The notes below the pieces were generated by a model that was not told the DNA's origin, did no database searches, and worked only from the letters and a program-made list of their open reading frames with translations. Below, piece after piece: positions 2,426 through 28,349 of a DNA stretch of 32,000 bases; position 1 is the stretch's first letter; each line of letters starts with the position of its first letter. Location of the stretch: positions 1,090,064-1,122,063 of the forward strand of contig NZ_JHUX01000003.1 in assembly GCF_000619845.1 (NCBI RefSeq), in the 5' to 3' direction. Position numbers and translations under genes: made by a program. The stretch comes from Alkanindiges illinoisensis DSM 15370. GTDB taxonomy: Bacteria; Pseudomonadota; Gammaproteobacteria; Pseudomonadales; Moraxellaceae.

Positions 2426-3709
<1,284 letters not shown>

Positions 3710-3782
3710 CTAAGGTTTTTTGAAGTTGTTTTTGGTTTCTATTCTTAAAGCCGGGTAAGCCAGCTTTAGGCACCTGCTCTTG

Positions 3783-4121
3783 CTACTTTTGATAATAACC
3801 TGTGCTTAAGGGTGATTCCTGTGGAAATAGTTTATCCTGTTGCAAATGGAGTTTTAGGCCTTTGAACACCGTTTGCTGTGTTTCGCTGCTTTGCAGTTCA
3901 ATTAAATCGCCTACCTGCTGCCAGGTGCCACTAGATTCCTGATCAACAGCGCCATACATTAAAACAGCCTGATAATGACCATCAGGGTTTAAAAGTAACT
4001 CGGAACCTACTTCGGTAACGCCATTCAAATAATAGTGACCCGGAGCAGCAGCATTGGCCAGATGGGTAAAAAGACTTAAGGCAATCATTAAAGCTACTGT
4101 TTTAACAAACTGATTTAGCAT
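3783..4121 (-). CDS. small secreted hypothetical protein
   Basis: 112-aa ORF with a clear signal peptide (MLNQFVKTVALMIALSLFTHLANA|AAPG). No recognisable domain. Confidence 0.6.
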   Translation of the reverse strand: MLNQFVKTVALMIALSLFTHLANAAAPGHYYLNGVTEVGSELLLNPDGHYQAVLMYGAVDQESSGTWQQVGDLIELQSSETQQTVFKGLKLHLQQDKLFPQESPLSTGYYQK

Positions 4122-4244
4122 ATAAAAATCCAGATTTTTGATGACTTATTTAATTAATTGAGCAACTGAACATAAGCCTAAACCTATCTTGTTTTAGCAA
4201 TCATCAACCATTTTTTATTGTAATTGCACAGATAACACTAACAT

Positions 4245-4276
4245 AAAAAAAACCCAGCCAAAGCCGGGTTTTTCTT
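4245..4276 (-). terminator. rho-independent terminator downstream of gap
   Basis: Stem aacccagc/gccgggtt (one mismatch) flanked by an A-run and a T-run, 12 nt after the gap stop. Symmetric, so possibly bidirectional. Confidence 0.6.
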
Positions 4277-4287
4277 TGCAAATCTAC

Positions 4288-6672: not shown

Positions 6673-7251
6673 TTACTGGGTGTGCCTAGTGCGAATTAGC
6701 TTGCTGGTGTCAAAACCCTGCTGTTTGGCTGCATCAACATAGTTCTGATAGGTTTGCTCATCAAGATGTGGTGTGCGAGACAAGATCCATAAATACTTGC
6801 GGTTGGGTGCGCCAACCAAGGCAGTCTGGTAATTGTCATCCAGCTTTAAAATCCAGTAATCACCTTTGGTAAAAGGAATCCAGCGCAAGCCTTGTGGCAA
6901 AAAGCTGACTTTAAGTTTGCTATTGGCCTTGTCTATCGGTGTGGCCTCACCCTGTGATGCCATGTTTTCTCCATTAGCCTTACGACACTGGTTGAGCACT
7001 GAAACCTTGCCATTGGCTTGCAAGCCGTAGGTTGCGGTGACATCACTGGCGCACTTGCGCTGGAAATACATGGGGAAACGCGCAACTTCATACCATGTGC
7101 CCAAATAGCGGTTTAAGTCCACCTGATTTACGGTTTGTGGCTTATTCGCTGGTGCTGCAATGGCAACCGAACCTAAGACCGCAAATCCCAGCAGGACCAT
7201 GGCGCTACGTTTGAGTATTTTGTGTGATGGCGCAACATGGGTAATGGTCAT
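6673..7251 (-). CDS. blc: bacterial lipocalin (Blc-like), secreted
   Basis: Lipocalin signature YLGTWYEVARF and a signal peptide with no lipobox Cys. Start set to the ATG at 7251, which has GAGGAG 7 nt upstream. Confidence 0.85.
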   Translation of the reverse strand: MTITHVAPSHKILKRSAMVLLGFAVLGSVAIAAPANKPQTVNQVDLNRYLGTWYEVARFPMYFQRKCASDVTATYGLQANGKVSVLNQCRKANGENMASQGEATPIDKANSKLKVSFLPQGLRWIPFTKGDYWILKLDDNYQTALVGAPNRKYLWILSRTPHLDEQTYQNYVDAAKQQGFDTSKLIRTRHTQ

Positions 7252-13734: not shown

Positions 13735-13810
13735 TCTCCAATAGCTCAGTCGGTAGAGCAACGGACTGTTAATCCGTGTGTCCCTGGTTCGAGCCCAGGT
13801 TGGAGAGCCA
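13735..13810 (+). tRNA. tRNA-Asn (GTT)
   Basis: The cloverleaf folds by hand: acceptor tctccaa/ttggaga, anticodon loop ctGTTaa, T-loop ttcgagc, encoded CCA. Confidence 0.95.
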
Positions 13811-14668: not shown

Positions 14669-14744
14669 TCTCCAATAGCTCAGTCGGTAGAGCAACGGAC
14701 TGTTAATCCGTGTGTCCCTGGTTCGAGCCCAGGTTGGAGAGCCA
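14669..14744 (+). tRNA. tRNA-Asn (GTT), second identical copy
   Basis: 76 nt identical to 13735..13810, at an offset of 934 bp. Confidence 0.95.
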
Positions 14745-14759
14745 AGATTCTGCGGTAAT

Positions 14760-14793
14760 AAAAAATCCCTGCCCAATAAGCAGGGATTTTTTT
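14760..14793 (+). terminator. rho-independent terminator after tRNA-Asn copy 2
   Basis: Same hairpin as 13826-13858, with one loop substitution and one extra T. Confidence 0.75.
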
Positions 14794-14852
14794 ATTGGTG
14801 CTTATTTTATTCTCGCTTTAGCGCCACTTTAAATTTTATAGGAAAGCAAAAA

Positions 14853-15302
14853 ATGAGCATGTGGCTGATTATTGGTATTGTAATCATTGCATTACTGGGC
14901 ATTATTGCAGGGGAAAATAAAAAGCCCCGCCAGCAGCACACACCCATTCATGCCAAACCAATATTAACCCGTCGTGAACAGCAGTTTTTTGCCGTACTGC
15001 AACAAGCCATGCCCCGCGCTTATATTTTCCCGCAAGTCAGCTTTTCCGCCATTTTGACTACTAAGGGGTTTTATACGCGTAGTCAGTTTAACCGCAAGAT
15101 TGCTGACTTTGTGTTATGCGATCACAATCTTAATATTGTGGCGATTATTGAACTGGATGACAGTAGTCATAAAGGCCGCGAGCAACAGGATGCCGCGCGT
15201 GATGCCATGCTGAATGAAGCAGGCTATCCGGTATTTCGCTATGCACAAATTCCTGTGGCTGGGCAGCTCCAGAAAGACCTGCAAAAATACCTGAAGTGGT
15301 AA
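14853..15302 (+). CDS. membrane-anchored DUF2726 / PD-(D/E)xK nuclease-like protein (copy A)
   Basis: 149 aa from the ATG at 14853; the track start at 14712 lies inside the tRNA. An N-terminal TM helix is followed by a K/R-rich stretch and then ADFVL...IIELDDSSHKG. It is about 50% identical by eye to the prophage protein at 26278..26739. Confidence 0.8.
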   Translation: MSMWLIIGIVIIALLGIIAGENKKPRQQHTPIHAKPILTRREQQFFAVLQQAMPRAYIFPQVSFSAILTTKGFYTRSQFNRKIADFVLCDHNLNIVAIIELDDSSHKGREQQDAARDAMLNEAGYPVFRYAQIPVAGQLQKDLQKYLKW

Positions 15303-15715: not shown

Positions 15716-15932
15716 AATTGTCTTTATAATTAGCAAAATTATGTGAGTAGCGGCAAATTTCTATTATTGTATTAATATCAGCATGCACACTGTGAAAACT
15801 GATTTTAATAAATCTATGCCTTAAAAGACAAGCTGTAACAGAGTTGCTTATAATTTAAGCAGCATCATTGATGTTTACCGCTGCATACTCCAGCTTATTC
15901 AATTCAACAATAATATACAGCTGGAGTATGTC

Positions 15933-16964
15933 ATGCCCAATTTTTCCTATGTCTGGCTTACTCCTTATTATCGGCCTATCTCATGCTGGGTTAAGCTAAT
16001 CTTGGCTGGGCTGTTTTTGGGCTTATGTTCATTCGTTCAGGCAGCAAGCACTTCCTTAAATCATAAAGTTATTGTAGTCACAGGCGCGTCCAGTGGTTTT
16101 GGCAAGGGCATTGCGCTGAAACTGGCCAGTGAAGGTGCAACAGTGGTACTGGCAGCAAGACGCACGGAATTGCTGGAACAAATCGCACAACAGTGCAGGC
16201 AACTGGGCGGCAATGCACTAGTGGTTACTACGGATGTGGCCAATGAACAGGAAGTTCAGCAGTTGGCTCAACGGACTCTGGATAATTTTGGCCGTATTGA
16301 TGTGTGGATTAACAATGCCGGGGTTGGTGTATTTGGCCGATTTGATGAAGCGCCACTGGCCGATCATAAACGACTGATGGATATTAATTTTAATGGCACG
16401 ATGTATGGTAGCTATTATGCCATGCGCCAGTTCCGCCAGCAGCATTACGGCTCACTAATCAATATTTCTTCGGTAATGGGTAAAGTACCGCTACCCTACT
16501 ATGCTAGCTATACTGCATCCAAACATGCCATTGTTGGGCTTGATGCAGCCATCAATCAGGAATTGCAGGTTAACCACGAGCGCAATATTCATGTCACTAC
16601 GATTATGCCATTTGCTGCTGATACACCCTGGTTTAATCATACGGCCAATTATAGTGGCAAGTCTCCACGCATGATTGCGCTAGATCATCCCGATAAAATC
16701 ATCAATGCTGTAATAAAAGCCATTGGCCATCCCAAAAAAGAAGTCGCTGTAGGCTATAAGGCAAAACTGGCTGTAACTTCCCACCGCATTGCCACAGGTT
16801 TAACCAATACGCTGGCTGGGCGTGCTGGTCATAAAATTATGATTCAGGACCCGCCGCCTGCTCCAGATACCACGGGCACACTATATAAGCCTATGGCTGA
16901 AGGTACTGGTGTGGTAGGTGGGGTCAAAGCCCGTGTAGAGAGGGAAGATCAAATGCAGGACTAG
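15933..16964 (+). CDS. short-chain dehydrogenase/reductase with N-terminal membrane/signal segment
   Basis: TGASSGFG cofactor motif, NNAG, catalytic YTASK, and GGAG upstream of the ATG. Confidence 0.9.
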   Translation: MPNFSYVWLTPYYRPISCWVKLILAGLFLGLCSFVQAASTSLNHKVIVVTGASSGFGKGIALKLASEGATVVLAARRTELLEQIAQQCRQLGGNALVVTTDVANEQEVQQLAQRTLDNFGRIDVWINNAGVGVFGRFDEAPLADHKRLMDINFNGTMYGSYYAMRQFRQQHYGSLINISSVMGKVPLPYYASYTASKHAIVGLDAAINQELQVNHERNIHVTTIMPFAADTPWFNHTANYSGKSPRMIALDHPDKIINAVIKAIGHPKKEVAVGYKAKLAVTSHRIATGLTNTLAGRAGHKIMIQDPPPAPDTTGTLYKPMAEGTGVVGGVKARVEREDQMQD

Positions 16965-17192
16965 CAGACATCATTACTTCTAAACTTTATGTATTGAAGT
17001 CCATATTGAGTAATTCAGTAGTCGAGGTTTTTACCAATCACTGAGTTAACTAATACTATGAATAACTTGCTAAACTTATACTTACTTATAGAAGAATTTC
17101 TTATAAAAATTTATTACAACCGGGTTATATCCTATGAAGCAGCCTATCCTTGCATATTTTTGCGCTCATCAGCCTGTTAGTTGAGTAATACA

Positions 17193-18119
17193 ATGAATTT
17201 CCAGTTATCTGCGAGCTTTGAAGATGCAGGCCGTGCAGTCCTAGACTTCTTGCATCAGCGTCTGGATTTTGGGTTATGGATGATTACCCGCACCGAGGGC
17301 GATGACTGGATTGTGCTGCAATCCGAGGATCATGGCTATCAGGTTAAGCCCGGGCAGGTCTTTCGCTGGGCGGATTCATTTTGTGCCCACATGGTTCAGA
17401 GTGCAGCACCGCATATTGCCCCCTGCTCTGATGAGATTGAACTGTATGCCACTGCGCCTATTGCCAAGCTGGTGCCTATAAAAGCTTATATTGGCTTTCC
17501 CCTGCGTCGGGAGAATGGCGAATTATTTGGTACTTTGTGCGCTATAGATCCACATCCAAAACCCGAATCCATCCGGCAGGAACAGGAACTGCTTGACCTG
17601 CTCAGCAATCTGTTGAGTGTCATTTTGCAAAATGAGCTTCAGCGCATCCAGTACACCCGTTATTTTGAGCGTCTGCAGGTAGAAACATTGCTGGATGAAT
17701 CAACCCAGCTATACAACCGGGCTGCATGGGATCGGCTGATTAATGCAGAAGAAGAACGCAGCCGCAGGCTTGGCCATCCTTCTGCAGTTTATGTGATTCA
17801 ATTGCACAACAGTCAAAAAGCCATGAGTCATCAGGAAAAAACGGCTCATGAGCTACTGATCAGGCGTGCTGCAATGGCCCTAAAAAAAATACTGCATGAT
17901 GATGATATTCTGGCACGGCTCAACGAGCATGAGTTTGCCATCTTAAATATTAATCTTGATAAATCAAAAGCTGAGGATTTTTTCCATTATATTCGGCAAA
18001 CCTTGCAGCATATGAATATTGCTGCATCAATTGGTTATGCACTCCGTCATCCGTCTACTGGATTGCATCAGGCACTGATTCAGGCTACAGCACAAATCCG
18101 TGGCCAGCAGCACAATTAA
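17193..18119 (+). CDS. GAF-domain protein with degenerate GGDEF domain
   Basis: N-terminal GAF-like region (GFPLRRENGELFGTLCAID). The C-terminal GGDEF fold starts at STQLYNRAAW, but the active-site motif reads NEHEF instead of GG(D/E)EF. Confidence 0.8.
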   Translation: MNFQLSASFEDAGRAVLDFLHQRLDFGLWMITRTEGDDWIVLQSEDHGYQVKPGQVFRWADSFCAHMVQSAAPHIAPCSDEIELYATAPIAKLVPIKAYIGFPLRRENGELFGTLCAIDPHPKPESIRQEQELLDLLSNLLSVILQNELQRIQYTRYFERLQVETLLDESTQLYNRAAWDRLINAEEERSRRLGHPSAVYVIQLHNSQKAMSHQEKTAHELLIRRAAMALKKILHDDDILARLNEHEFAILNINLDKSKAEDFFHYIRQTLQHMNIAASIGYALRHPSTGLHQALIQATAQIRGQQHN

Positions 18120-18305
18120 TTTCCTAAACAGCTTTTATTCATTCCATACTGATGACTTAAAAACCCTGACAGCTTAAAATCTTCTAAAATTGCATAACAG
18201 CAATGTTGATAGCGAATTTTTTAAGATATTTATCTATCATATCTTTATATAGCTAAAGCACTAAAGACAGCTTAAGCACACTTGTGCTTTGGCCTTTATA
18301 AATAA

Positions 18306-18764
18306 TTGTTTAATGGCTTTGCCAGAGAAATAAATGAGTCAATTAATTTTTTTAATTATAGGGTTGGATATTGGTTAGGGAAAAATTATAAATCAACCAG
18401 ACAAAATAAAAAGCCGGTGCCATCACGGCTTAGGCAATTGACAGCCATAGAACGGCAAAAAGCTAAAGTTCTGTATACAACTGATGCAGATCGCATTAAG
18501 GAGCTCAATTTACTTTCACCCACTGAAGGAAAGTTTTTACGCATACTTCAGCATGAATTCATCAGTGCTGACATTGTAGTCAAGCAAAAGCGTTTCTTTG
18601 TGGTAGATAAAGATCAATTTCCACTGGCTATCTTTGAATATCGTGATGGGTTGCAAACTTTAAGGGCAACAGATGTAGATGATGGTTTACCTGTATTTAT
18701 CTATAAGAATTTGCCACCAAGCAGCTCTATTAAAGAAGATGCAGAATTTATACTGGCTCGATAA
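18306..18764 (+). CDS. hypothetical protein with degenerate DUF2726-like segments
   Basis: AT-rich region with a TTG start and no internal Met. LSPTEGKFLRILQHEF, FFVVDKDQFPLAIFEYRDG and GLPVFIYKN mirror the LT..E..F..L, DFV..ELD and AGYPV.RY blocks of the two DUF2726 proteins, but the acidic and Lys residues are not conserved. Confidence 0.45.
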   Translation: MFNGFAREINESINFFNYRVGYWLGKNYKSTRQNKKPVPSRLRQLTAIERQKAKVLYTTDADRIKELNLLSPTEGKFLRILQHEFISADIVVKQKRFFVVDKDQFPLAIFEYRDGLQTLRATDVDDGLPVFIYKNLPPSSSIKEDAEFILAR

Positions 18765-18772
18765 GGAGTAAC

Positions 18773-19171
18773 ATGAGTAAGGACTTTTTAGTTTTTTTGA
18801 TTCCCCTTGGAATTTTTTTGGCTTACTAGATTTTTGGTAATAAACCTGCTCGTCCTCAGCGGATATCCTCTGGTTCTAGAAATGTAAAACCTTCAAAAGA
18901 ACAGCGCAATCAGAAGATTTCAGCCATTAATCTGTTGTTTAAAAATGCTTCAACAGAATTCAAGGAATATCGTGTTTTCAGCAAGAATGGAAAAGTAATA
19001 ATTTCTGAAATTGAAGATATAAGAGAATATCCTAGAGAACTTATATTTATTTCCCTAAATCCTTTAGCACAGAAGTCCATTACACAAGGTAGTGCATACA
19101 TTGTGGCGGTGTATCGTTCAGTACTCACAGGTGCAGAAATGCGTCGGGATTTTGCTTCAATATTACACTAG
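18773..19171 (+). pseudogene. 132-codon frame interrupted by an in-frame TAG at 18827-18829
   Basis: AAGGAG lies 6 nt before the ATG at 18773. An 18-aa hydrophobic N-terminus (MSKDFLVFLIPLGIFLAY) is followed by TAG, and the same frame stays open to 19171, which contains the track ORF 18935..19171. Confidence 0.45.
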
Positions 19172-19301
19172 GATATTTTTCTAGTAATCTTGTATGGGTA
19201 CAAGAAAGTAAGATTAAGCCGTTAATTTTGCACAGAAAACTAGCAATTTGAATGATCTAGAAAAAGAGGTTGTCAAAGCTAAGCCCAAAATTAGTTTTAA
19301 G

Positions 19302-19386
19302 TGAAATTGCTGGATTAAATCCGTTTGATACGCGCACAGAGGTACAGACGGAATTAGACAAGGATAATTCTTCTTATTGGAATAAA
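19302..19386 (+). pseudogene. remnant of the 3' end of a phage HTH-regulator gene (older, related phage)
   Basis: Encodes [29 protein letters not shown], colinear with the tail of the intact prophage HTH gene (26995-27079). Of the 11 differing codons, 6 are synonymous and 5 change the residue. Confidence 0.6.
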
Positions 19387-19431
19387 TGGCGCGCCCGGCG
19401 GGATTCGAACCCACGACCCCTGCCTTCGGAG
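19366..19431. repeat. attL: 66-bp perfect direct repeat (21 bp of flank plus the 3' 45 nt of tRNA-Arg)
   Basis: Identical to 27059-27124 at an offset of 7,693 bp. It contains only the 3' part of the tRNA (CCA end to anticodon loop). Confidence 0.85.
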
Positions 19432-19465
19432 CGCGTCAGTTTTAGTATTTCAGTTACAAAAATAT

Positions 19466-20347
19466 TTAAAAAGTTGGCAGAGATTTTAGAGCGTCGCGCA
19501 AATTATCAATTTGCAAGTGAGCATAGCGCTCCGTTGTTGTTATACACGTATGGCCTAGCAGATCGCGCACCGTATAAAGCGGGATTCCCGATTGAACGAG
19601 CCACGATGCAAAAGTGTGTCGTAAATCGTGAATACGCAAGTTATCAATCTTTGCCATCTTACAGGCTAATCTAAATCCTTTCTTTAAACTCAGTATATGA
19701 GTGCCTGTCTGTTCATTATAAAAAACCCAAGTATTATTCGCCCTGGCTAACTTCATTTCATGCAGCACTTGCATGGCCGTTTCATTCAATGCAATAAAAC
19801 GCCGCCGTTTTGACTTGGTATTTTCCCTATTCAGAATTAAATAGCGATTATTAAAATCCACCCTATCCCAAGAAAGCCGGAGCAGCTCACCAGATCGGCA
19901 GCCCGTATTTAAAGCCAATTTGATAAAGCAGTTTAAAAAGTAATTATCTTTTGAAGCATAGATTAGCCTTGCAGCTTCAGCATTAGATAGAAAGCGGATA
20001 CGTGGCTCAGATTCAGATAATGAAAAATTGGCCAATGGGTTTCTATGGGATAATTCATGGTCAGTAAAATAATAATTAATTGCAGCACGCAGAGACCGAA
20101 ATTCACGGTTAATTGTCGCGTCAGTCACTCCAGCAGCACGCCTAAAGTGAATGTAGTCACGCAGGCTTTGCCGTGTGATTGCAGTTATTTCAATGTCACC
20201 ATAAAAAAGCTCAAAGCGTGCATAGGCATATTTGTCACGATCTTTTGAAGTATGTTCAGAATAATGCAGATAATAAGCTGTCACATTATTAAGGGTAATC
20301 ATAGCTAAAAGTCCTGATACATAAGGACTTTTAAAAGTGGAATTCAT
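19466..20347 (-). CDS. int: tyrosine recombinase / phage integrase
   Basis: C-terminal catalytic region NTGCRSGELLRL...HDLRHTFASWLVQSG...LLGHTCITTTERYAHL (R, H-x-x-R, Y). It lies directly next to attL. Confidence 0.9.
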   Translation of the reverse strand: MNSTFKSPYVSGLLAMITLNNVTAYYLHYSEHTSKDRDKYAYARFELFYGDIEITAITRQSLRDYIHFRRAAGVTDATINREFRSLRAAINYYFTDHELSHRNPLANFSLSESEPRIRFLSNAEAARLIYASKDNYFLNCFIKLALNTGCRSGELLRLSWDRVDFNNRYLILNRENTKSKRRRFIALNETAMQVLHEMKLARANNTWVFYNEQTGTHILSLKKGFRLACKMAKIDNLRIHDLRHTFASWLVQSGIPLYTVRDLLGHTCITTTERYAHLQIDNLRDALKSLPTF

Positions 20348-20366
20348 GGCATGTTTAGTCTGTTTT

Positions 20367-20512
20367 GAAACGCGGTGCGTTTCGCTTCGCTTGTAACTAT
20401 GAAGCTGATGCGCACAAGTCGCATCAGCTTCTGTAATTAGCTTGTTTTTGGGTTCTTTGGGCGATCAAGTTACTTTCAGACTAGACGGTGCAGTTGCCCG
20501 CTATTCTGAAAG
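20367..20512 (-). promoter_or_regulatory. cluster of three hairpins in the phage non-coding region (candidate packaging signal / origin / terminator)
   Basis: gaaacgc-ggt-gcgtttc (20367-20383); a perfect 12-bp stem gaagctgatgcg/cgcatcagcttc (20401-20431); ctttcaga/tctgaaag (20473-20512). Confidence 0.4.
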
Positions 20513-20523
20513 CCTTGACGCTG

Positions 20524-20649
20524 CTAATCCCTACTATTTTCTTTGACACCTTTAATAATTCTACGAATAGGGTGTTTAATACCGTCCCATATAAAACCAA
20601 ATAAGCATAGACCTATAAGAAACATCAGTGCTTGATAATAACTAGACAT
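20524..20649 (-). CDS. small hydrophobic phage protein (41 aa), not in the ORF track
   Basis: Its ATG at 20649 overlaps the zot stop (ATGTCTAG). The product is MSSYYQALMFLIGLCLFGFIWDGIKHPIRRIIKGVKENSRD: one TM helix plus a basic tail. Confidence 0.5.
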   Translation of the reverse strand: MSSYYQALMFLIGLCLFGFIWDGIKHPIRRIIKGVKENSRD

Positions 20650-21934
20650 TAGGTGTTACCTGTGCTGGTGACTGCACTGGAGCAGCAGGCTGTGACTGTG
20701 CAAGGAACGGGTTAAACGGCATTCCGTCATTGATTACTTTTTTGCAGTCCGCTATAGACACGTCCAGCTTAGATCCTTGTTGCGTGTAACAACTGCATTT
20801 TGTCTTGAGCTGGATGCAACCGGACAGATAAGGCCGGTTAACTCCACCAGCAGAATACTGGTTATCAAAAGGCTTGTTTGGGTCATAATTCACTTCCACA
20901 GTAGGCGTGGAAGTTTGATTTTGCAGTGTGGAAGTCTGTCGCGCTTCCAGATCTGCACGTTGCTCAGGGGTCAGCGGGTCATGCACTTGTGCTGCCTGCT
21001 GTGCTTGTACTGTCTGGCTAGTTTTTGCTGGTTGAGGTTTGCCCCCAGCGACCTCAGTTAAAAAGTTATCTGTCAGGAACAGGGTTTTTAGAGCGTAGGT
21101 AAACGCTAGAACTACACCAATACAGATAAAAATAAACTTGGGTGGGATACGCATTTTATGCGTGTGTACCGTAGCAGACTTATAATATTTATATAAATCC
21201 TTTGGATAGCTAAAGCGAAATGAGCGTTCAGCAATGGCTTTTTTTGTTGGCTCATTAGGCCCAAGAACACAGTAAGCCCAGAGATATACAGTAGCCGATG
21301 GCATCCCCCAGCCACGGTGCAGGTGGAAGTGATTACCCACTACTGAACGGAAGTGAGAATGCACCAGAACCGGAAACTGGGTGATCCCATAAATATCAAA
21401 ACCGCGGTGACGGTGAATCTGTAAGGCTTCTACAATGTCATTGGTTTTGCGTTCTTCCTTGTAGGTTTCACGCTGCTGGATTTCATCATAGAACACGCGT
21501 GAGCCGTCAGGACAAGTACGCCAGTCATCAGGACTAGGCAAAACATTAGGGACTTTCAGGCCGTTGATGTCAGCGTATATGGTGCGGACATCCTTTAAAA
21601 ACTTAAGTTTTAAAGCAGGGTTATAGTCCTTAATACGGGTAATAATTGAGTTGTAAGCCATTGTTTTCTGGTAGTAGAGCTCATGGCGTAATTCAAGGGA
21701 AAGTATAGAAAAATGATCATATTCATCTGGGTATAACTCTATTTGCTCTTTTAAATTCCAGCCATACTGGAATTCATCTTCAAGCTTGTTTTCCCTAATG
21801 ATTTTATCGTTATGGGCAAAAATAGCAGGGTTCAGCTTAATGTTCTTGGCGTTCTCTTTTTCAAACTGGATGATTAAAGAAACCGCGTAAAGGGTTTTTC
21901 CTGAGCCGGGCGTTCCGGTTATCAAATGCAGCAT
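20642..21934 (-). CDS. zot: Zot / pI-like filamentous-phage assembly ATPase
   Basis: N-terminal Walker A GTPGSGKT, a central TM helix (FIFICIGVVLAF), and a Cys-containing periplasmic C-terminal domain. Its position after the pVI-like gene matches Ff and CTXphi. Confidence 0.92.
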   Translation of the reverse strand: MLHLITGTPGSGKTLYAVSLIIQFEKENAKNIKLNPAIFAHNDKIIRENKLEDEFQYGWNLKEQIELYPDEYDHFSILSLELRHELYYQKTMAYNSIITRIKDYNPALKLKFLKDVRTIYADINGLKVPNVLPSPDDWRTCPDGSRVFYDEIQQRETYKEERKTNDIVEALQIHRHRGFDIYGITQFPVLVHSHFRSVVGNHFHLHRGWGMPSATVYLWAYCVLGPNEPTKKAIAERSFRFSYPKDLYKYYKSATVHTHKMRIPPKFIFICIGVVLAFTYALKTLFLTDNFLTEVAGGKPQPAKTSQTVQAQQAAQVHDPLTPEQRADLEARQTSTLQNQTSTPTVEVNYDPNKPFDNQYSAGGVNRPYLSGCIQLKTKCSCYTQQGSKLDVSIADCKKVINDGMPFNPFLAQSQPAAPVQSPAQVTPNV

Positions 21935-22011
21935 GGGTTACTCCGAAGCTACCCTGCGGGCGGGTCACCGTGCGCTCCGTGCAGTTGCGCGGTGCGCCGT
22001 GCAATCCGTCC
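21935..22011 (-). other. GC-rich 77-bp spacer with three GCACGG repeats
   Basis: On the minus strand it reads ggacggattGCACGGcgcaccgcgcaactGCACGGagcGCACGGtgacccgcccgcagggtagcttcggagtaaccc, immediately before the zot ATG. Its composition is unlike the flanking phage DNA. Confidence 0.5.
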
Positions 22012-22299
22012 TCAGGTAGCTTTTCGCAATGTTAGCTTTGATGCGTTTAACGCCATTCGGGTCAAATACGCAGATAAAATAAGCGACATATAGAGATCAA
22101 GGCCAAGCAAGTGTGCAAAGGCCAATACGTCACTTGGTACACCACCTAGCATCGACTTCATTTTGTCAACGGCAGCCGTGAAGGTGGTCATGAATATGGC
22201 TGATGAGGTAAGCATGACACCCGCACCAGTTAGGACATTTTTTAAGAATCCCTTTTGACTGGATTCAACAACAGCAGTTACTTTTGACCAGAAACCCAT
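22012..22299 (-). CDS. pVI / Ace-like minor coat protein
   Basis: 95-aa hydrophobic protein. Its ATG at 22299 overlaps the upstream stop (TAATG). It lies between the pIII-like gene and zot. The track start at 22395 is upstream and overlaps the pIII-like gene. Confidence 0.6.
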   Translation of the reverse strand: MGFWSKVTAVVESSQKGFLKNVLTGAGVMLTSSAIFMTTFTAAVDKMKSMLGGVPSDVLAFAHLLGLDLYMSLILSAYLTRMALNASKLTLRKAT

Positions 22300-23714
22300 T
22301 AACTTTCTTCCTCTGTACGTCCAGCTACGATCATAGAAGCCTGATAAGCACCAATGAGTAAAATTGCTGGTTTTGCATAAGCAAAAGCCTGACACCAGCC
22401 GGAAAGATCAAACTCAAAGGTCTGGGTTTGACCTATAAAATTAAAGCTGAAGGTTTTTGGCTGGGGACATGTTCCGCCAAAATCCAACTGGATGGCTTGA
22501 GGTGTTTCTGTCGTAGGAATATCAATATCAGTATCACTATCATCACGCTCAGGAACTTCTTCCTTGATTGCATCAGCAAGCTCGCGTGTGGCCGTTGCTG
22601 TTTTCGTTGTTTCAGCAAGCTGTTTTTCTGCATCAGTATGGGCTTGAGTAGTTCCAGCAGTTACAGCCTTTTTGGTTTCCTCTGTCTGTGTTGCAGTGGT
22701 TTGAGTCGCTGTTTTCACTGATTCTGTGTCAGTTGCTATACGGGTAGAGTTAGTAGCAACTTTTCCTGAATTGGTATTACTAATATTCATTGCGTCACAA
22801 ATGAAAGCAGCCCATGAGCAAAAGCCGGGCAATGTGAATTTTTCTATAGGCGGTGCATCTGGATCAGCAGTATTAGGCTTTGTTTCTTTGGTGATATCGT
22901 TGTCACCTTCTTTAGGCTCTACACCAGCATTTGCATCTAGCTGTTGAGGTACAGAGGGATATGCAAGAGGTTTACCTTGTTCAGCGTCAGCTAGATCAGC
23001 CGCAACTGTTTCTTTTACAAAGTCATTTGCAGCAGCGTCACCAGCAGCGGCATTTTTTGCTATTTCAGCGCCAACAACATCGTACGGTAAGTATTTTTCT
23101 TCAGGTTTAATGTCGGGGTCATAATTTGGGTTTACGACACGGTTAGCTTGGTCGTATCCCCAAGCACTACGGCATTCAACGGTTTGACCATTATCTGTTG
23201 CAACCATTTCGGTGATAGGAGGATGTCCTTCAACAGCAGCAACAGCAGCATTACACGCTTCCCCAAATGTAGAATAAGTCTTTGTTGTGCCAGCAATAGA
23301 AATCTGCCATAAATATTGAGAATTATTAACAGGTGTTTCCCAATATTTAACACGATTATTTGCAGGATCAAGTACCCAAGAAACACCATCGAGAAGTAAA
23401 TCAATTGCAGTCGTTACAGCTAGTACAGCACCGAAACGACCTATGCCACGCGCCAGATCAGCAGGTGCTGGAGTAACTTTTGCAAATGAATTAACCGTAC
23501 GAGAAGCACCATTAATGATTGCTTCTTTGGTTGCATTGATTGTTGCTACACCAGCCTCAGCAGCTATAGAACCTACAGACCAGCCACCCAAACCAGAAGC
23601 AGCATTTGCAAATACATAAGCTGGAGCAAACATCATGTAAACACAGATGATTAGATTAATTATCTTCGTGTGATAATCAGGAATGCTAGAACGGTTACAA
23701 TTAAAGGTATCCAA
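22299..23714 (-). CDS. pIII-like adsorption / minor coat protein
   Basis: 471 aa with a signal peptide (...MMFAPAYVFANA), a Thr/Ala/Gln-rich linker, and a C-terminal membrane anchor (AILLIGAYQASMIVAGRTEEES). It lies after the coat gene. The start (TTG at 23714) is uncertain. Confidence 0.65.
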   Translation of the reverse strand: MDTFNCNRSSIPDYHTKIINLIICVYMMFAPAYVFANAASGLGGWSVGSIAAEAGVATINATKEAIINGASRTVNSFAKVTPAPADLARGIGRFGAVLAVTTAIDLLLDGVSWVLDPANNRVKYWETPVNNSQYLWQISIAGTTKTYSTFGEACNAAVAAVEGHPPITEMVATDNGQTVECRSAWGYDQANRVVNPNYDPDIKPEEKYLPYDVVGAEIAKNAAAGDAAANDFVKETVAADLADAEQGKPLAYPSVPQQLDANAGVEPKEGDNDITKETKPNTADPDAPPIEKFTLPGFCSWAAFICDAMNISNTNSGKVATNSTRIATDTESVKTATQTTATQTEETKKAVTAGTTQAHTDAEKQLAETTKTATATRELADAIKEEVPERDDSDTDIDIPTTETPQAIQLDFGGTCPQPKTFSFNFIGQTQTFEFDLSGWCQAFAYAKPAILLIGAYQASMIVAGRTEEES

Positions 23715-23740
23715 TTTATCCAGCTCGCTTCGTCAGTCAT
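23660..23740 (-). CDS. possible 26-aa coat-like peptide (pVII/pIX-style), not in the ORF track
   Basis: MTDEASWINWIPLIVTVLAFLIITRR has an acidic N-terminus, a hydrophobic core and a basic C-terminus. It overlaps the pIII-like 5' end in another frame. The SD is weak. Confidence 0.3.
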   Translation of the reverse strand: MTDEASWINWIPLIVTVLAFLIITRR

Positions 23741-23754
23741 TTAGTTAATCCCAA

Positions 23755-23783
23755 TAGAAGAAAGCCCCGAAGGGCTTTCGTTT
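23755..23783 (-). terminator. hairpin terminator immediately after the major coat gene
   Basis: gaaagccc-cgaa-gggctttc, 5 nt after the coat stop, followed on the minus strand by a T-rich tract. Ff phages have a terminator after gene VIII. Confidence 0.6.
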
Positions 23784-24032
23784 TTACTTGGCACCCTTTT
23801 TGAACCATGACCATGCGAGGTACATGCCCAGTAAACCAACCAGAACAATAATGACTCCCTTAACAGCAGTTTTAGTGCCGTCAAGCTCACCAGTTGCCCC
23901 AGAGAAGTCCAGTTCAGCAGCAGCAAAAGAATTAGCTGCTACAAGCGCAGTTGAAGCCCCTACAGCACCTACGAATGCTGCATCCTTAAGACGTTTAACC
24001 AGTGGTTGGGTTTGTGGAGTTACATCTTTCAT
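23784..24032 (-). CDS. major coat protein (pVIII-like)
   Basis: The leader ends ...AANSFA|AAELDF. The mature peptide of about 45 aa has an acidic N-terminus, a hydrophobic core (VIIVLVGLLGMYLAW) and a basic C-terminus (FKKGAK). AAGGA is upstream. Confidence 0.85.
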   Translation of the reverse strand: MKDVTPQTQPLVKRLKDAAFVGAVGASTALVAANSFAAAELDFSGATGELDGTKTAVKGVIIVLVGLLGMYLAWSWFKKGAK

Positions 24033-24054
24033 TTTTTACATCCTTAAGTTGTGT

Positions 24055-24252
24055 TCAGGTGTTTTTATCCATGAACTGTTTAAAAAGCTGGTAGCAGTAA
24101 GCCATTATTAAAATCGTGCAGATTTCAACAGTAAGCTCACGTGCTTGAGCTTTCGTGATTGCGACCTGGTCAAGTACAGTGACTTGCTCAGACCATGAAA
24201 CACACGTCTGTGGCGTTGTGTCAGATAGCTGGTCACAGACGTAGTGCGTCAT
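24055..24252 (-). CDS. small phage protein (65 aa)
   Basis: Tightly packed: it starts 3 nt after the previous stop. It has one hydrophobic segment (ICTILIMAYCYQLF). Function unknown. Confidence 0.5.
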   Translation of the reverse strand: MTHYVCDQLSDTTPQTCVSWSEQVTVLDQVAITKAQARELTVEICTILIMAYCYQLFKQFMDKNT

Positions 24253-24255
24253 TCT

Positions 24256-24396
24256 TTAAAATCCGGTGCAGGTCATGTAATGGGCAGTAATCAGGCTTTT
24301 AGACATGACTTGACCGCAGCAAATACATTTAACTTTTGGTACGAGTGATATGCTCATTGGCTTAAATCCCAGTCCTTTTACATAAACCTGAATCAT
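24256..24396 (-). CDS. small Cys-rich phage protein (46 aa), not in the ORF track
   Basis: Its ATG is 2 nt after the stop of the ssDNA-binding-like gene. The product is MIQVYVKGLGFKPMSISLVPKVKCICCGQVMSKSLITAHYMTCTGF, with a C-x-CC...H...C pattern. Confidence 0.5.
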   Translation of the reverse strand: MIQVYVKGLGFKPMSISLVPKVKCICCGQVMSKSLITAHYMTCTGF

Positions 24397-24398
24397 GG

Positions 24399-24704
24399 TT
24401 AAGCCTTAGCAGCTTGTGGCGCTAGAACAGGCTTTAGGTCAATCAAAATGGTTTTTTGGCTTTTGCCATTGGTGACCATTTCAAACGTGGCCACCGCTTC
24501 GAACGGAAACTTGAGTGTTGCCACTTTGTTGAAGTTGTCAGACAGCCCCCATGGGTATTCAGAGCCAGCGAAGCCCACAGCATCGCCTTTGCTGGTGTCC
24601 ATGCCTGTTTGCACGTAAACCTTTGTGCTGTCGTATGGCTTTCCTTCCATTTCGCCTTTGCTACGCTTCGCACCAGTTACTACTACGTTAGATTGAAATT
24701 GCAT
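24399..24704 (-). CDS. probable ssDNA-binding protein (pV/RstB position)
   Basis: 101-aa ORF directly after Rep, with GAGGT as SD. The call is by position only; I recognise no diagnostic motif. Confidence 0.5.
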   Translation of the reverse strand: MQFQSNVVVTGAKRSKGEMEGKPYDSTKVYVQTGMDTSKGDAVGFAGSEYPWGLSDNFNKVATLKFPFEAVATFEMVTNGKSQKTILIDLKPVLAPQAAKA

Positions 24705-24714
24705 GTTTTTTACC

Positions 24715-25995
24715 TCAAGAATAAACAGCGTTAAATTGGGAGCGCTGAACAGCCTGACTCAAGCGTGTATAGCCATAAGCCTGTTCAAACTGTTTGTTAC
24801 GTTCCATTGAAATTGCAAGATGATCAATAATTTGCAGACGCTTAGGTACTGCGTCAGGGTCATTAGCAGTCACAAACTGCATAATTTCTGAATCGGAATA
24901 AACCTTGCGGAAAAGGGCAAAGTATTTGCCGAATTGATGTTTGATAATTTCCTTAGCCCGCTTCTGGGTGATTTCAGCTGTTTTTTTAACAGTGGCTATT
25001 TTTTCAGGCGTGGCGTACTGGTGAAAATCCGAAAAACAAGGATAAGCACCAATAAAATATTGAGAAGGACTAAGCAAAATATCAAATGGTATAAAGCGGT
25101 CATGGCCTTTAAATTCAACCTCTGCACGTGTCCAAGGATCATCCTTAGCACCCTCTTTTTTACCTTTTTCATAAATCCGGCAATATTTTCCAGATTCACG
25201 AGTGCCAATGGTTAGCGTCCGGCCTTTGCCTGTAATGCGTTTCCAGTTGCCCAAGTGTCCAATGTTAGGCATGGTGCCACCGCACCAGAAGCCGCCTAAG
25301 CCGTCTTGCATGTTTGCCCAGTCAACATTTAAGTGTTTGCCCTGCAAATCATCATGTGCAAGGTCTACACGGGTCAGCTTGGTACGCTGGGCATATCCGG
25401 TCAGGTATTTATAAAGGCGTTCATGCCATCCTTTAGCTGCTAAAGCACAGCCTTTGCCGTTAAGCTGGACTGCAATGCGTTTAGAGCTATGACCCATTAA
25501 GACTATGCCTAGGTTGTCTTGCAGCTCCCAAGAGTACTTATAGAAGTGCATACCCTTGTCACGTTTTTTTGCGATGCCAAAACCGAAGATTTCAAACAGG
25601 TCTTGGTCTAAATCGTCGGCAATGTCGTCGTAGGCGTCAGCATCATCTAGGCCTAGTGCTAAATATTTAGGGCTAAAGGTTTCAACACCTAGCGCAAATG
25701 TTACCCAGTCCAGTTGAGCAACTTCGCCAGTACAAGGCACGCTATGGATGATTGGCAGGTCTGTACCATCTTCAGTTTTGACCATGCGGACGTTGTCCAG
25801 CTTGCGTGGATACTTCCAGTTGCCTAGGTCTGCTGTTTTCCCGAAAATTTCCGGCTGGTTGCCTTCCACTATCGCAGGGATTAAGGCCTCTTGCGTCCCC
25901 TGTGGTGATACCGTTACCCCCATATTATAAAAGGGGGTCTTTTCGACCTTTACCGTGTGTTTTAACTGGGTTTTGATTAATTTTTGATCAGACAT
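24715..25995 (-). CDS. rolling-circle replication initiator (Rep_trans / RstA-like)
   Basis: LTRVDLAHDD and GKYCRIYEKGKKEG...WTRAEVEF blocks are typical of the Rep_trans family used by CTXphi-type phages. The ATG at 25995 overlaps the upstream ORF stop (ATGTCTGA). Confidence 0.85.
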   Translation of the reverse strand: MSDQKLIKTQLKHTVKVEKTPFYNMGVTVSPQGTQEALIPAIVEGNQPEIFGKTADLGNWKYPRKLDNVRMVKTEDGTDLPIIHSVPCTGEVAQLDWVTFALGVETFSPKYLALGLDDADAYDDIADDLDQDLFEIFGFGIAKKRDKGMHFYKYSWELQDNLGIVLMGHSSKRIAVQLNGKGCALAAKGWHERLYKYLTGYAQRTKLTRVDLAHDDLQGKHLNVDWANMQDGLGGFWCGGTMPNIGHLGNWKRITGKGRTLTIGTRESGKYCRIYEKGKKEGAKDDPWTRAEVEFKGHDRFIPFDILLSPSQYFIGAYPCFSDFHQYATPEKIATVKKTAEITQKRAKEIIKHQFGKYFALFRKVYSDSEIMQFVTANDPDAVPKRLQIIDHLAISMERNKQFEQAYGYTRLSQAVQRSQFNAVYS

Positions 25996-26254
25996 GATCA
26001 TCCCCCAATTGTTCCAGAATTTCACTCAGGGAAGCATTTTCACTTTCAAAAATGTCAGCAAGTGCAGCGATGCGAGCTGGTGAGTAGCCCCAAGCCGCAC
26101 AAACTGTTTCAAGCTGGCGCAGGCAATGTTCAGTATTTGGTGTGCATGAGCCGCCTACAATGATTTCTTCGCCATAATTCGCTACTATCTGTGCGACATG
26201 ATCAAATGCAGCTTGAGCAAACTCATGCTGATCTTTATAGACAAACGTTTGCAT
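25988..26254 (-). CDS. hypothetical acidic phage protein (88-91 aa)
   Basis: Its stop overlaps the Rep start. I found no SD before either candidate start (ATG at 26254, GTG at 26263). Confidence 0.45.
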   Translation of the reverse strand: MQTFVYKDQHEFAQAAFDHVAQIVANYGEEIIVGGSCTPNTEHCLRQLETVCAAWGYSPARIAALADIFESENASLSEILEQLGDDHV

Positions 26255-26277
26255 GGCGTTCACCAGAGAGAGAAAAA

Positions 26278-26739
26278 ATGGAAATCTTGATAATCATTGC
26301 TGTTGTAGTTATTGCAGCCTTAGCTTTTTTAGGAGCAGCTAATAAAAGCAAATCTACTAAAGGTAAAAACCAAACACCCATTAAGGCTAAGCGCGTTTTA
26401 ACCATGAATGAGCAGCCAACATTCAACAGATTACGAGAAGCACTACCTGACCATATAGTTTTAGCCCAAGTTTCATTTGGTGCATTATTAAGTACAACCG
26501 GACAAGCAACACGTAATCGCTTTAATCGAAAAATTGCAGATTTTGTTGTACTGGATAAATCTTTTAACGTGGTTGCAGTTGTCGAACTGGACGACAAGAG
26601 CCACAAAGGAAAAGAACAGCAAGATGCAGAACGGGATGCAATGCTTAAGGAAGCTGGATATCGTGTCATTCGATATCCGAGAACTCCTGATCTAGATAAA
26701 GTCAAAGCTGACTTTGCACCACCCATAAACACACCTTGA
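26278..26739 (+). CDS. membrane-anchored DUF2726 / PD-(D/E)xK nuclease-like protein (copy B, prophage cargo)
   Basis: 153 aa with an N-terminal TM helix (EILIIIAVVVIAALAFLG), a Lys-rich stretch, and ADFVVLD...VVELDDKSHKG...GYRVIRY. It is on the strand opposite to the phage structural operon. Confidence 0.8.
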   Translation: MEILIIIAVVVIAALAFLGAANKSKSTKGKNQTPIKAKRVLTMNEQPTFNRLREALPDHIVLAQVSFGALLSTTGQATRNRFNRKIADFVVLDKSFNVVAVVELDDKSHKGKEQQDAERDAMLKEAGYRVIRYPRTPDLDKVKADFAPPINTP

Positions 26740-26790
26740 TATTTCGCTAAATCGGCTTAACATAATTGTGAAGTCGGATTAACTAAATCT

Positions 26791-26830
26791 AACCAAATTT
26801 GTGAAGAAAGGTTACTTCACAAATTTGGTT
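26791..26830. promoter_or_regulatory. 16-bp perfect inverted repeat, candidate operator upstream of the HTH gene
   Basis: aaccaaatttgtgaag-N8-cttcacaaatttggtt ends 18 nt before the HTH ATG. A third TTGTGAAG copy is at 26766-26773. Confidence 0.55.
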
Positions 26831-26848
26831 ATCGTCAAGGTGTGCGAA

Positions 26849-27145
26849 ATGATCAAAGAACTAATAGAAAAAGCAAAATTTAGCTTGGGAAGCTATGAAA
26901 AATTAGCAGAAGCGACAGGCGTAAGACCGTCTGTAGTATCGGAATGGAAAGCAGGAAAAAGAAAGCCTGATGCTTTTAAAATTTGTTATATGGCTGAAAT
27001 TGCTGGATTAAATCCGTTAGATACACTTGCAGAAGTACAAGCAGAAATTGATAAAGACAATTCTTCTTATTGGAATAAATGGCGCGCCCGGCGGGATTCG
27101 AACCCACGACCCCTGCCTTCGGAGGGCAGTACTCTATCCAGCTGA
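26849..27145 (+). CDS. Cro/CI-type HTH regulator whose 3' end crosses attR into the antisense of tRNA-Arg
   Basis: HTH segment [26 protein letters not shown]. The frame has no stop before the tRNA and ends at 27143-27145. The track start at 26801 lies inside the inverted repeat, so the ATG at 26849 is preferred. Confidence 0.75.
27059..27124. repeat. attR: 66-bp perfect direct repeat
   Basis: Identical to 19366-19431. Here it is part of the complete tRNA-Arg. Confidence 0.85.
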
Positions 27146-27156
27146 GCTACGGGCGC
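27080..27156 (-). tRNA. tRNA-Arg (CCG)
   Basis: The reverse complement folds by hand: acceptor gcgcccg/cgggcgc, anticodon loop ctCCGaa, T-loop ttcgaat, encoded CCA. Confidence 0.95.
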
Positions 27157-27168
27157 ATAAGGCGAGAC

Positions 27169-27197
27169 ATCATAGGCAAAAAACTAGCGCGGGTAAA
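27169..27197 (-). promoter_or_regulatory. candidate sigma70 promoter of tRNA-Arg
   Basis: On the minus strand, TTTACC-N17-TATGAT ends 12 nt upstream of the tRNA 5' end. Confidence 0.45.
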
Positions 27198-27380
27198 GCA
27201 TTGCTTTTTTAACTGCTAGTTTTCTGTGCAATTTCTTATCAGTAATCTGCCAAACTATAACGCCTGCTCAATAAGTTGCAACGCAGCGTTCATAAAATAC
27301 AACCGGATAAGACTTGGCTTTTTTGACAATATTCCCGACAATAGGTGCCCTGTGCTTAACCAGTCATTTGAGAGAATTCC

Positions 27381-28349
27381 ATGACCGATGCTTTAGTGTT
27401 AAAGCAGCTCACCAAAACCTATAAAAACGGGTTCCAGGCATTAAAAGGTATTGATCTCACCGTCAGTGAAGGTGATTTTTACGCACTGCTTGGGCCAAAT
27501 GGTGCGGGCAAATCCACCACCATCAGCATTATTAGCTCCCTTACCCGAAAATCTTCGGGTCATGTTGAAATATTTGGCCATGATTTAGATAGCCATCCGT
27601 CACAGGCCAAACAATGTCTGGGTGTGGTGCCGCAGGAATTTAACTTTGGCCAGTTTGAGAAAGTCTTTGATATTCTGGTCACGCAAGCCGGTTATTACGG
27701 TATCCCCAAAAAAGAAGCACAAATTCGTGCAGAAAAATATTTAAATAAGCTGGGTCTGTGGGAAAAGCGCAATGTACAGTCGCGCCTGCTCTCCGGGGGC
27801 ATGAAGCGTCGCCTGATGATTGCACGTGCCATGATTCATGAGCCACGCCTGCTGATTCTGGATGAACCAACTGCGGGTGTGGATATTGAACTGCGCCGTT
27901 CCATGTGGGAATTTTTAACCGAAATCAATAATCAGGGCACTTCCATTATTCTAACCACGCATTATCTGGAAGAAGCGGAAATGCTGTGTCGCCGTATTGC
28001 CATTATTGATAAAGGCGTGATCAAGGAAGACACTGACATTAAAACGCTGCTGAGCCAGTTATCAGTAGAAACGTTTGTACTGGATTTAAAGCAGCCCGTC
28101 ACCAGTTGGCCTGCGCTAAATGTACAGGGCGTACATTTCCGGCAGGTTGATCCTTTAACGGTGGAAGTTAGTATTGATAAAGGTCTGGCACTAAATGATG
28201 TGTTTGCCCTGCTGGCAAGCCATGACATTGTGGTGACAAGTATGCGTAATAAGTCCAATCGGTTGGAAGAATTATTTATTCATATGGTTGAAAAAAACCT
28301 AGACGATCAAAATGTAGGTGGTCAAAAGCCTGCTGGAGCACAAGCATGA
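27381..28349 (+). CDS. yadG: ABC transporter ATP-binding protein (ABC-2 type)
   Basis: Walker A GPNGAGKST, signature LSGGMKRRL, Walker B LLILDEPT. Its stop overlaps the permease start (ATGA). Confidence 0.9.
   Translation: MTDALVLKQLTKTYKNGFQALKGIDLTVSEGDFYALLGPNGAGKSTTISIISSLTRKSSGHVEIFGHDLDSHPSQAKQCLGVVPQEFNFGQFEKVFDILVTQAGYYGIPKKEAQIRAEKYLNKLGLWEKRNVQSRLLSGGMKRRLMIARAMIHEPRLLILDEPTAGVDIELRRSMWEFLTEINNQGTSIILTTHYLEEAEMLCRRIAIIDKGVIKEDTDIKTLLSQLSVETFVLDLKQPVTSWPALNVQGVHFRQVDPLTVEVSIDKGLALNDVFALLASHDIVVTSMRNKSNRLEELFIHMVEKNLDDQNVGGQKPAGAQA

Follow-up and report, generated by a model that had tools for sequence, protein, structure and literature searches.

We analysed a 32,000-nt stretch of the genome of Alkanindiges illinoisensis DSM 15370 (contig NZ_JHUX01000003.1; hereafter, the window), which contains an inovirus-like prophage. 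The phage encodes its own tyrosine integrase, which has inserted it into a tRNA-Arg(CCG) gene, in the anticodon loop and 3' half. As judged from the sequence, the core of the phage attachment (att) site, attP, lies inside the 3' end of the gene for an XRE-type helix-turn-helix (HTH) regulator, giving the gene two predicted products, a protein of 98 amino acids (aa) in the prophage and one of 172 aa in the excised circle. This architecture is real and conserved, and in a related clade of Psychrobacter inoviruses it is directly observed in both states, with both products visible in public data. As for its role, we infer that the gene could serve as an integration-state switch, with a short, effective form opposed to a long, less effective one; we hold this reading tentatively, as the single most likely one.

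In the integrated state, the HTH open reading frame (ORF; 26849–27145, plus strand, stop codon TGA at 27143–27145) starts with an ATG preceded by the Shine-Dalgarno-like AAGGTG and continues without a stop into the 66-bp att core at attR (27059–27124), which spans codons 71–92. By origin, residues 1–77 are phage-specific, residues 78–92 are encoded by the core, and residues 93–98 (GSTLSS) belong to the chromosomal part of the tRNA-Arg gene; codons 78–98 are antisense to the tRNA, W78 (TGG) being its CCA end read backwards. Joining the left side of attR to the right side of attL, as in the reconstructed excised circle, keeps the frame and yields the 172-aa product. Its last 80 residues (RVSFSISVTK...SYRLI), encoded by 19432–19671 on the plus strand (19432–19674 with the stop), run antisense to the 3' end of the integrase gene int from 19466 onwards, a 209-nt overlap that covers the last 69 int codons, such that the plus-strand HTH gene and the minus-strand int converge in the reconstructed circle. 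The initial annotation had described an HTH ORF that is open up to the core and ends after 98 aa in tRNA-Arg antisense, and an in-frame excised join producing 172 aa, with the same 80 residues antisense to int; translation combined with ARAGORN agreed with the former and junction reconstruction with the latter.

The two att cores, at attL (19366–19431) and at attR, are exact, identical direct repeats, each comprising 21 bp and then the 3'-terminal 45 nt of tRNA-Arg(CCG) (27080–27156, minus strand; ARAGORN). The core ends in the anticodon loop, at the GAG codon of HTH residue 92, and the tRNA gene is intact at attR. In the window, a 22-mer from the core is found at exactly two places, and none of 100 shuffles contained it. 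Thus, the element shows the hallmarks of a tRNA-integrated prophage, namely flanking direct repeats, one of which completes the 3' end of a tRNA, and an int gene adjoining attL, at a distance of 35 nt. An empty site is present in Alkanindiges sp. WGS2144 (L005), syntenic with both flanks of the window at 78–84% DNA identity, a synteny that places the host in Moraxellaceae.

We consider the core to be truly coding because the predicted last helix of the HTH protein includes the tRNA-encoded residues WRARRD. A stop cannot arise in the core, since a functional tRNA has to be regenerated from those very bases. Read-through to the end of the core is therefore forced rather than coincidental: the last helix runs to about residue 84, and the remainder of the core is constrained by the tRNA. 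As a separate observation, the tRNA-encoded W-R-A-R-R-D (27071–27097, codons 75–83) occupies the place of a conserved L-R-A-A-G-V in long members of the family, and both would come from similar GC-rich DNA (CGCGCC…GGCG). This likeness might be a clue to the capture of the tRNA-Arg core inside the gene, or it may be a coincidence.

The two forms were observed directly in the sister clade. Starting from the family member P0055, a search retrieved 94 proteins from Psychrobacter-type inoviruses, in which the HTH protein is 46% and Int 36% identical to the window counterparts, and the core has the same position and frame. Sixteen clusters comprise proteins of 96–97 aa that end in ...SETDTLSN, and 38 clusters hold longer proteins (114–168 aa, mostly 132 or 136) that continue past the core and are encoded, for the most part, on circular contigs of 7.2–8.0 kb. 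The gene for the 96-aa form P0197 (L163) adjoins tRNA-Arg(CCG) on a chromosomal contig of 82.7 kb, where the ABC-transporter/QueF neighbourhood matches that of the window. Eleven separate NCBI assemblies (GCA_0418…, such as GCA_041810355.1; L158–L161) have one and the same 7,756-bp contig, which encodes the 136-aa form P0190; four copies of it were read and proved to be different rotations, each with a 141-nt terminal overlap, the removal of which leaves 7,615 bp; three further sister-clade contigs of 7.4–8.0 kb have terminal overlaps of 26–30 nt. Such rotations and terminal overlaps are the signature of circular molecules. In the sister-clade circles, the ORF crosses attP and overlaps the 3' end of int by 98 nt (in L158, ORF 4325–4735 and int 4638–5459), a convergent overlap seen directly in L158, L164 and L165.

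Form and contig size were associated. Among clusters with informative contig sizes, comparing phage-sized contigs (7.0–8.8 kb) with contigs above 10 kb, long forms were distributed 17 to 2 and short forms 2 to 6 (Fisher P=0.002). Two long forms are encoded on large contigs, P0188 (160 aa) on a chromosome of 3.4 Mb and P0174 (154 aa) on a contig of 15.8 kb; they may represent tandem prophages or hybrid junctions, in which case the long form would be made from the chromosome. The attP rebuilt from L163 yields a 129-aa product with a tail resembling one of the observed tail types, which validates the procedure applied to the window.

The frame stays open across attP in homologous phages, a check that the initial annotation had proposed. 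All 16 close homologues (50–82% identity) share the frame of their tRNA-antisense ends, even across an in-frame indel of 4 aa that immediately precedes them, and every relative found integrating at tRNA-Arg(CCG) reads through the core. We rebuilt attP from the seven prophages with both junctions, and the frame was open across the core in each, with excised tails of 80 aa in the window, 58 aa in L081, 80 aa in L082, 25 aa in L002, 35 aa in L085, 53 aa in L087 and 84 aa in L007, an Azoarcus metagenome-assembled genome (MAG). Integrated tails extend only 5–6 aa past the core, compared with 23–84 aa in all rebuilt or observed episomal forms; the rebuilt and sister-clade forms included none with an episomal tail of under 23 aa. 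Three otherwise unrelated P' arms share the 13-mer ATCCGACGAACGG, located 20–35 bp to the phage side of the core (approximately 676–688 in L002, 348–360 in L085 and 2904–2916 in L087), which may be an integrase arm or accessory site. Because of this 13-mer, the IRRT peptide common to the tails of these three phages is spurious rather than a conserved protein feature.

Two candidates for natural junctions were rejected. In L001, a Moraxellaceae MAG (450–779, 1335–4475), the junction between the HTH gene and the core leads into a P2-like prophage with portal and terminase genes, and is thus a hybrid junction, not a natural attP form; this second phage at the same site gives the regulator a third C-terminus, …PLPSESKNN. 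The 7,891-bp IMG/VR contig L091 is likewise not a circle: its ends lack a repeat, and it represents a prophage cut off between the tRNA and the stop codon of int.

The full-length homologue search is biased by the tRNA-encoded tail and was therefore repeated with the N-terminal 77 aa against 1.84 billion representatives, yielding 215 matches. Most single-domain members of this family are 90–280 aa long; in them, the HTH is followed by a hydrophobic stretch (...ALGNLRAAGVAA...) and then by a variable end. Six-frame tRNA translations identified tRNA-derived peptides near the C-terminus in at least 24 of the 150 family representatives listed, coming from several tRNAs, in both orientations and in two frames of tRNA-Arg(CCG). 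They include the sense-orientation peptides GHWFDPSTAHQ and AGVTGSIPVPPTK, as well as a Glu-like tRNA in antisense. In relatives from Burkholderia and Trinickia (L004 1924–2325; L093–L096), tRNA-Arg(CCG) antisense is read in a different frame, and the peptide sits after an extra hydrophobic segment; at these Burkholderia-type loci, att repeats were not found within the fetched DNA, so attP was not reconstructed there. In relatives that use dif, the protein either stops at a dif-like peptide or reads on past it (FILCKI, YIM, YYV), the type of peptide obtained by translating the dif-like attP of the Ralstonia inovirus phiRSS0. Altogether, the gene remains open through the att site in at least six att types, with tRNAs in either orientation and in two frames. 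A search for a close relative among 50,697 sequenced phages, at the DNA and protein levels, returned only tRNA matches in Ralstonia phages.

The window HTH protein matches Pfam HTH_3 (E=2.9e-6) and phrog_638, "transcriptional regulator" (E=7.8e-14; residues 2–76 on profile positions 4–82 of 145), of the PHROG category "transcription regulation". An AlphaFold (AF2) model of the 98-aa form, built on 17 homologues, has a mean predicted local distance difference test (pLDDT) score of 86, with six helices up to residue 84 and disorder from 85 to 98. The att junction is thus predicted to fall in a disordered region after the folded domain, with residues 1–84 unchanged between the two forms. Foldseek matched the model to the XRE-type repressors P22 C2, the lambda cI N-terminal domain, ClgR and DdrO, with weak E-values, as usual for such a small fold. 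Just upstream, a putative control region (26736–26848, plus strand) contains a sigma-70-like site (26736–26763), a palindrome with 20-nt arms (26790–26831) before the HTH start and, near it, a third TTGTGAAG half-site (26766–26773). Six phages have a palindrome with 12–20-nt arms just upstream of the HTH gene, each with its own sequence (in the relatives, L081 9947–85, L082 7707–62, L087 9943–80, L163 9945–76 and L158 4265–4303), the pattern that would be expected of phage-specific operators setting immunity specificity. An XRE/cI-type HTH encoded beside phage-specific palindromes fits a repressor. On the opposite strand, a small 91-aa ORF (25988–26263, minus strand; phrog_20873) heads the minus-strand replication module and is possibly the first gene of the regulated operon; L081 and L082 have small minus-strand ORFs at the equivalent position.

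On the reading that we favor, the HTH gene would act as a sensor of the integration state. The short prophage form would be a stable, effective repressor, acting at the palindrome upstream of its own gene and at the divergent replication module. The long episomal form would be less effective, its added hydrophobic helix and disordered tail possibly rendering it unstable, aggregation-prone or mislocalised. Repression, and along with it the silencing of replication and virion production, would then start only after integration and lapse on excision. Such a switch is plausible, although functional support for an active short form and an inactive long form is weak. An AlphaFold model of the natural 136-aa form retains the HTH domain and adds a hydrophobic helix at residues 88–107 (pLDDT 64–76, moderately confident) and a disordered end at 111–136 (pLDDT about 40). 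The 80-aa tail of the window protein is basic and partly hydrophobic, and all tails are net positive (+1 to +9) with a hydrophobic stretch near the start. Maximum 15-residue hydropathy (0.3–2.1) was too weak and variable to call a membrane-spanning tail.

Several observations weigh against such a switch and open the way to a neutral explanation, which we rank next, somewhat behind the switch. An ancestral attP might have settled in the last codons of the regulator gene, with a stop-free core and run-on to whichever stop came next by chance; both isoforms would work alike, the folded domain being unaffected, and later changes of integration site would have hit the same spot, a frozen accident of genome compaction. 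The tails evolve with almost no constraint, 53–59% of their residues differing as against about 10% in Int on the opposite strand. Across the 201 nt of int overlap, members of the window clade show 38–50 nucleotide differences per pair, which change 4–7 of 67 Int residues as opposed to 33–40 of 68 tail residues; in the sister clade, the corresponding values are 4–5 of 31 for Int and 11–15 of 30 for the tail. The amino acid sequence of the tail is essentially unconstrained, with no visible purifying selection. Within the sister clade there are at least four unrelated tail types, and in L081 a premature stop occurs at tail codon 59. The 80-aa tail was also rejected as a conserved domain: it lacks homologues outside the clade, and the substitutions in it follow synonymous sites of Int. 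Excised tails share no sequence beyond close relatives, and their long-form C-termini are diverse (SYRLI, TVRAN, FYKQV, LKYLF, TSSTS, VVTRC, PHGCF, APANL, KEALG, ITVRA). A sequence test revealed no ssrA-like (-AA/-LAA) end or shared C-terminal motif in these tails, other types of degron being possible.

The searches for the excised form in the window clade itself point the same way. Querying 5.8 billion proteins with the 172-aa sequence returned only integrated forms of 97–103 aa, and DNA-pattern scans of metagenome and viral contigs for the attL/attP junction of this clade found nothing. Nor is the open frame very surprising given the Int sequence. Upon synonymous resampling of Int codons, a tail of at least 80 aa was obtained with P=0.016 and one of at least 58 aa with P=0.033 in the window clade, and one of at least 46 aa with P=0.19 in the sister clade; shuffling gave P=0.14 for L002, P=0.20 for L085 and P=0.025 for L087. 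The 80-codon open run that follows the core in the window is only moderately unusual. Combined by the Fisher method over all lineages, the tail-length tests give P=0.006, a value to be read with the caveat that the first ~15 tail codons overlie the conserved AT-rich P' arm motif and that the lineages are related, such that the evidence for selection on tail length is suggestive at best.

Further features in keeping with the neutral explanation are the position of the junction after the folded domain and the finding that the two repressor forms of the mycobacteriophage BPs do not differ in DNA binding (PMC4557955), which shows that binding can be unaffected by a tail. Against it stand the persistence of read-through across att types, tRNA orientations and frames, the combined P value and the 23-aa lower limit of the episomal tails. 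Moreover, a hydrophobic, disordered extension of 40–80 aa would rarely leave the stability of a ~10-kDa protein unchanged. On balance, we continue to favor the integration-state switch.

An arrangement that is kept while the amino acid sequence of the tail drifts could also be relevant at the RNA level. In the circle, polymerase collision or RNA duplexes on the convergent, overlapping HTH and int units might lower the expression of one or both genes, with integration relieving the interference, and the long ORF would then be a side effect. Convergent overlap is a matter of observation in the three sister-clade circles noted above and is predicted for the window (209 nt, compared with 98 nt in the sister clade). 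Within 26100–27400, the only terminator-like site is the palindrome upstream of the HTH start, with none between the HTH stop and the core. However, the tail regions of L087, L085 and L002 do not overlap int, and the tail of L162 overlaps a different small ORF. We regard sensing at the RNA level as improbable.

We regard it as more improbable still that the HTH protein is not an immunity repressor at all, being instead a host-directed regulator or encoded by a prophage that no longer excises, with no switch role for the 172-aa form. Such a role has a precedent in phiRSS0, for which Yamada 2013 proposed regulation of host genes by full-length ORF13 (PMC3816273), and the searches for the excised form in the window clade came back empty. 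Yet the same phage offers a counterargument, as a phiRSS0 lysogen is immune to phiRSS0 and not to phiRSS1, which lacks ORF13 (PMC3816273). Perfect repeats of 66 bp and an intact int speak for a recent, reversible integration, and the gene occupies the usual place of inovirus repressors, across from the replication module and beside phage-specific palindromes.

A broader form of the switch proposal concerns the phrog_638 filamentous phages of Beta- and Gammaproteobacteria in general. In these phages, attP might be kept in the 3' end of the regulator gene whatever the recombination system, be it XerCD at dif or tyrosine integrases at several tRNAs, in either orientation and in different frames, and the regulator would be a general sensor of the episome and prophage states, an independently evolved inovirus counterpart of integration-dependent immunity that works through a sequence-tolerant destabilising or hydrophobic tail, with no ssrA tag. 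We offer this generalization as a possibility that we rather doubt.

The remainder of the prophage conforms to the inovirus assignment. The body of the element, ~7.6 kb long (19432–27058), carries the int, Zot, Rep_trans, DUF2726 and HTH genes in synteny with L081, L082 and L087. The integrase (293 aa; 19466–20347, minus strand) matches Pfam Phage_integrase (E=1.6e-32) and phrog_1, and is followed by a Zot-type ATPase (20642–21934, minus strand; E=2.2e-11), a Rep_trans initiator (24715–26025, minus strand; E=7.2e-20) and a DUF2726 gene (26191–26739, plus strand). The Zot/pI-type ATPase together with the Rep_trans initiator make up an inovirus gene set, to which the relatives add Phage_Coat_B and DUF2523.

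To the left of attL, ~3.6 kb of the window (15790–19365) are extra compared with the empty site in L005. They contain an SDR gene (15933–16964), a GAF-GGDEF gene (17181–18119) and a phage-family gene (18306–18764; phrog_23897, E=5.6e-43), and end in an HTH remnant (19297–19365, plus strand), the diverged 3' end of an older, related HTH gene that abuts attL. Compared with the live HTH gene, the remnant copy at 19302–19386 differs in 11 codons, 6 of them synonymous and 5 non-synonymous; a recount returned figures identical to those of the initial annotation. The remnant and its phrog_23897 neighbor indicate that the present phage integrated beside the remains of an earlier one. The extra stretch resembles what would be left of an older prophage after decay, namely its right part, and may include cargo genes; no third copy of the att core was found. 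Further upstream of the prophage region are two tRNA-Asn(GTT) genes (13735–13810 and 14669–14744), ~0.9 kb apart. The latter adjoins a DUF2726-like ORF (14712–15302) that shares a closely similar C-terminal stretch (...FNRKIADFV...DD.SHKG.EQQDA.RDAML.EAGY...) with the prophage DUF2726 protein; this ORF appears to be chromosomal in L005 too because L005 aligns across that stretch.

How inoviruses choose between a silent prophage and chronic virion production is poorly understood, and the choice affects biofilms, virulence and host fitness. If the proposed switch is real, the phage would read its own physical state at the protein level without extra genes, an attractive solution for a genome of 7.6 kb. 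The observations extend a single noted case, that of phiRSS0 with XerCD and dif, to Moraxellaceae inoviruses with a tyrosine integrase at tRNA-Arg(CCG) and to a recurrent pattern in one regulator family. The natural pairs of short and long forms, on chromosomal and circular contigs, respectively, make the question experimentally tractable, and the 7,756-bp contig is ready source material for the episomal form. For annotation, a tRNA-like or dif-like peptide at the end of an ORF of this family is a marker of an att site and a prophage end.

Among the filamentous phages, parallels in layout are offered by RstR of CTXphi and the Pf4 repressor Pf4r, small HTH proteins with a presumed role in immunity whose genes lie opposite those for replication. 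The window HTH gene, likewise, is a small HTH gene opposite the replication module of a filamentous prophage. CTXphi integrates by XerCD at dif, and Pf4 employs an integrase and a tRNA-Gly located at the end of the prophage opposite the repressor. To our knowledge, attP has not been reported inside the repressor gene of either phage.

The initial annotation had likened the arrangement to the integration-dependent immunity of the BPs/Brujita type, which, in the literature searched, is described only for phages of actinobacteria. The comparison holds in that attP lies inside an HTH gene, which is shortened upon integration, and breaks down with regard to the ssrA-like tag and the rep/int layout. 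In both cases, attP is inside a repressor ORF, the repressor role being inferred for the window, and recombination relies on a tyrosine integrase; the shorter prophage product keeps the HTH domain (103 versus 136 aa in BPs, 98 versus 172 aa in the window). BPs, too, integrates at a tRNA-Arg gene. In BPs and Brujita, the viral repressor and Int carry ssrA-like tags, and the short prophage form is stable and active (PMC3694055, PMC4557955), whereas no such tag is visible in the window-type tails. The window Int ends in ...ALKSLPTF and those of its relatives in ...SLPNL and ...SLPKL, with no -AA end, although sequence alone cannot rule out degrons. In BPs, rep and int are co-transcribed from Prep in the same direction, with cro divergent (PMC3694055); in contrast, the window HTH gene and int converge with the overlap described above, as they do in the circles L158 and L165. 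BPs is a tailed double-stranded DNA phage of Actinobacteria, whereas the window element is a single-stranded DNA inovirus of Gammaproteobacteria, and no protein homology beyond the generic HTH was seen. Finally, the difference in activity between the two forms has been demonstrated in BPs and is a prediction for the window phage.

The nearest known system is phiRSS0, which contradicts the suggestion in the initial annotation that such an arrangement had not been described in inoviruses. In this phage, ORF13 contains a dif-type attP, its product shrinks from 156 to 130 aa upon integration (Yamada 2013, PMC3816273; Askora and Yamada 2015, PMC4471427), and a functional difference between the two forms has been proposed (PMC3816273). 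In the phiRSS0 sequence (JQ408219), we located the dif-like site at 6756–6774, inside ORF13 (6681–7151). ORF13 belongs to the same PHROG as the window protein (phrog_638, E=1.4e-40), with only the N-terminal domain in common; the pairwise match is marginal (E=0.033), and the link runs through profiles and intermediates (P0043, E=1e-12). The two systems are alike in involving a filamentous phage, an N-terminal HTH regulator and an attP in the 3' end of its gene, such that integration alters the C-terminus. They differ in that phiRSS0 uses the host XerCD at dif, whereas the window phage uses its own tyrosine integrase at tRNA-Arg(CCG). They also differ in the segment before attP: both ORF13 forms have a hydrophobic segment between the HTH and attP, and in the long relatives ...ALGNLRAAGVAA... 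is followed by 20–40 aa before the att-derived peptide, whereas the window protein lacks this segment, its core directly following W75-N-K. ORF13 does not overlap an integrase gene, unlike the circle form of the window gene. Relative to the known systems, the window phage is set apart by having a tyrosine integrase that targets a tRNA instead of XerCD acting at dif, a convergent overlap with int, and a long form with no visible degradation tag.

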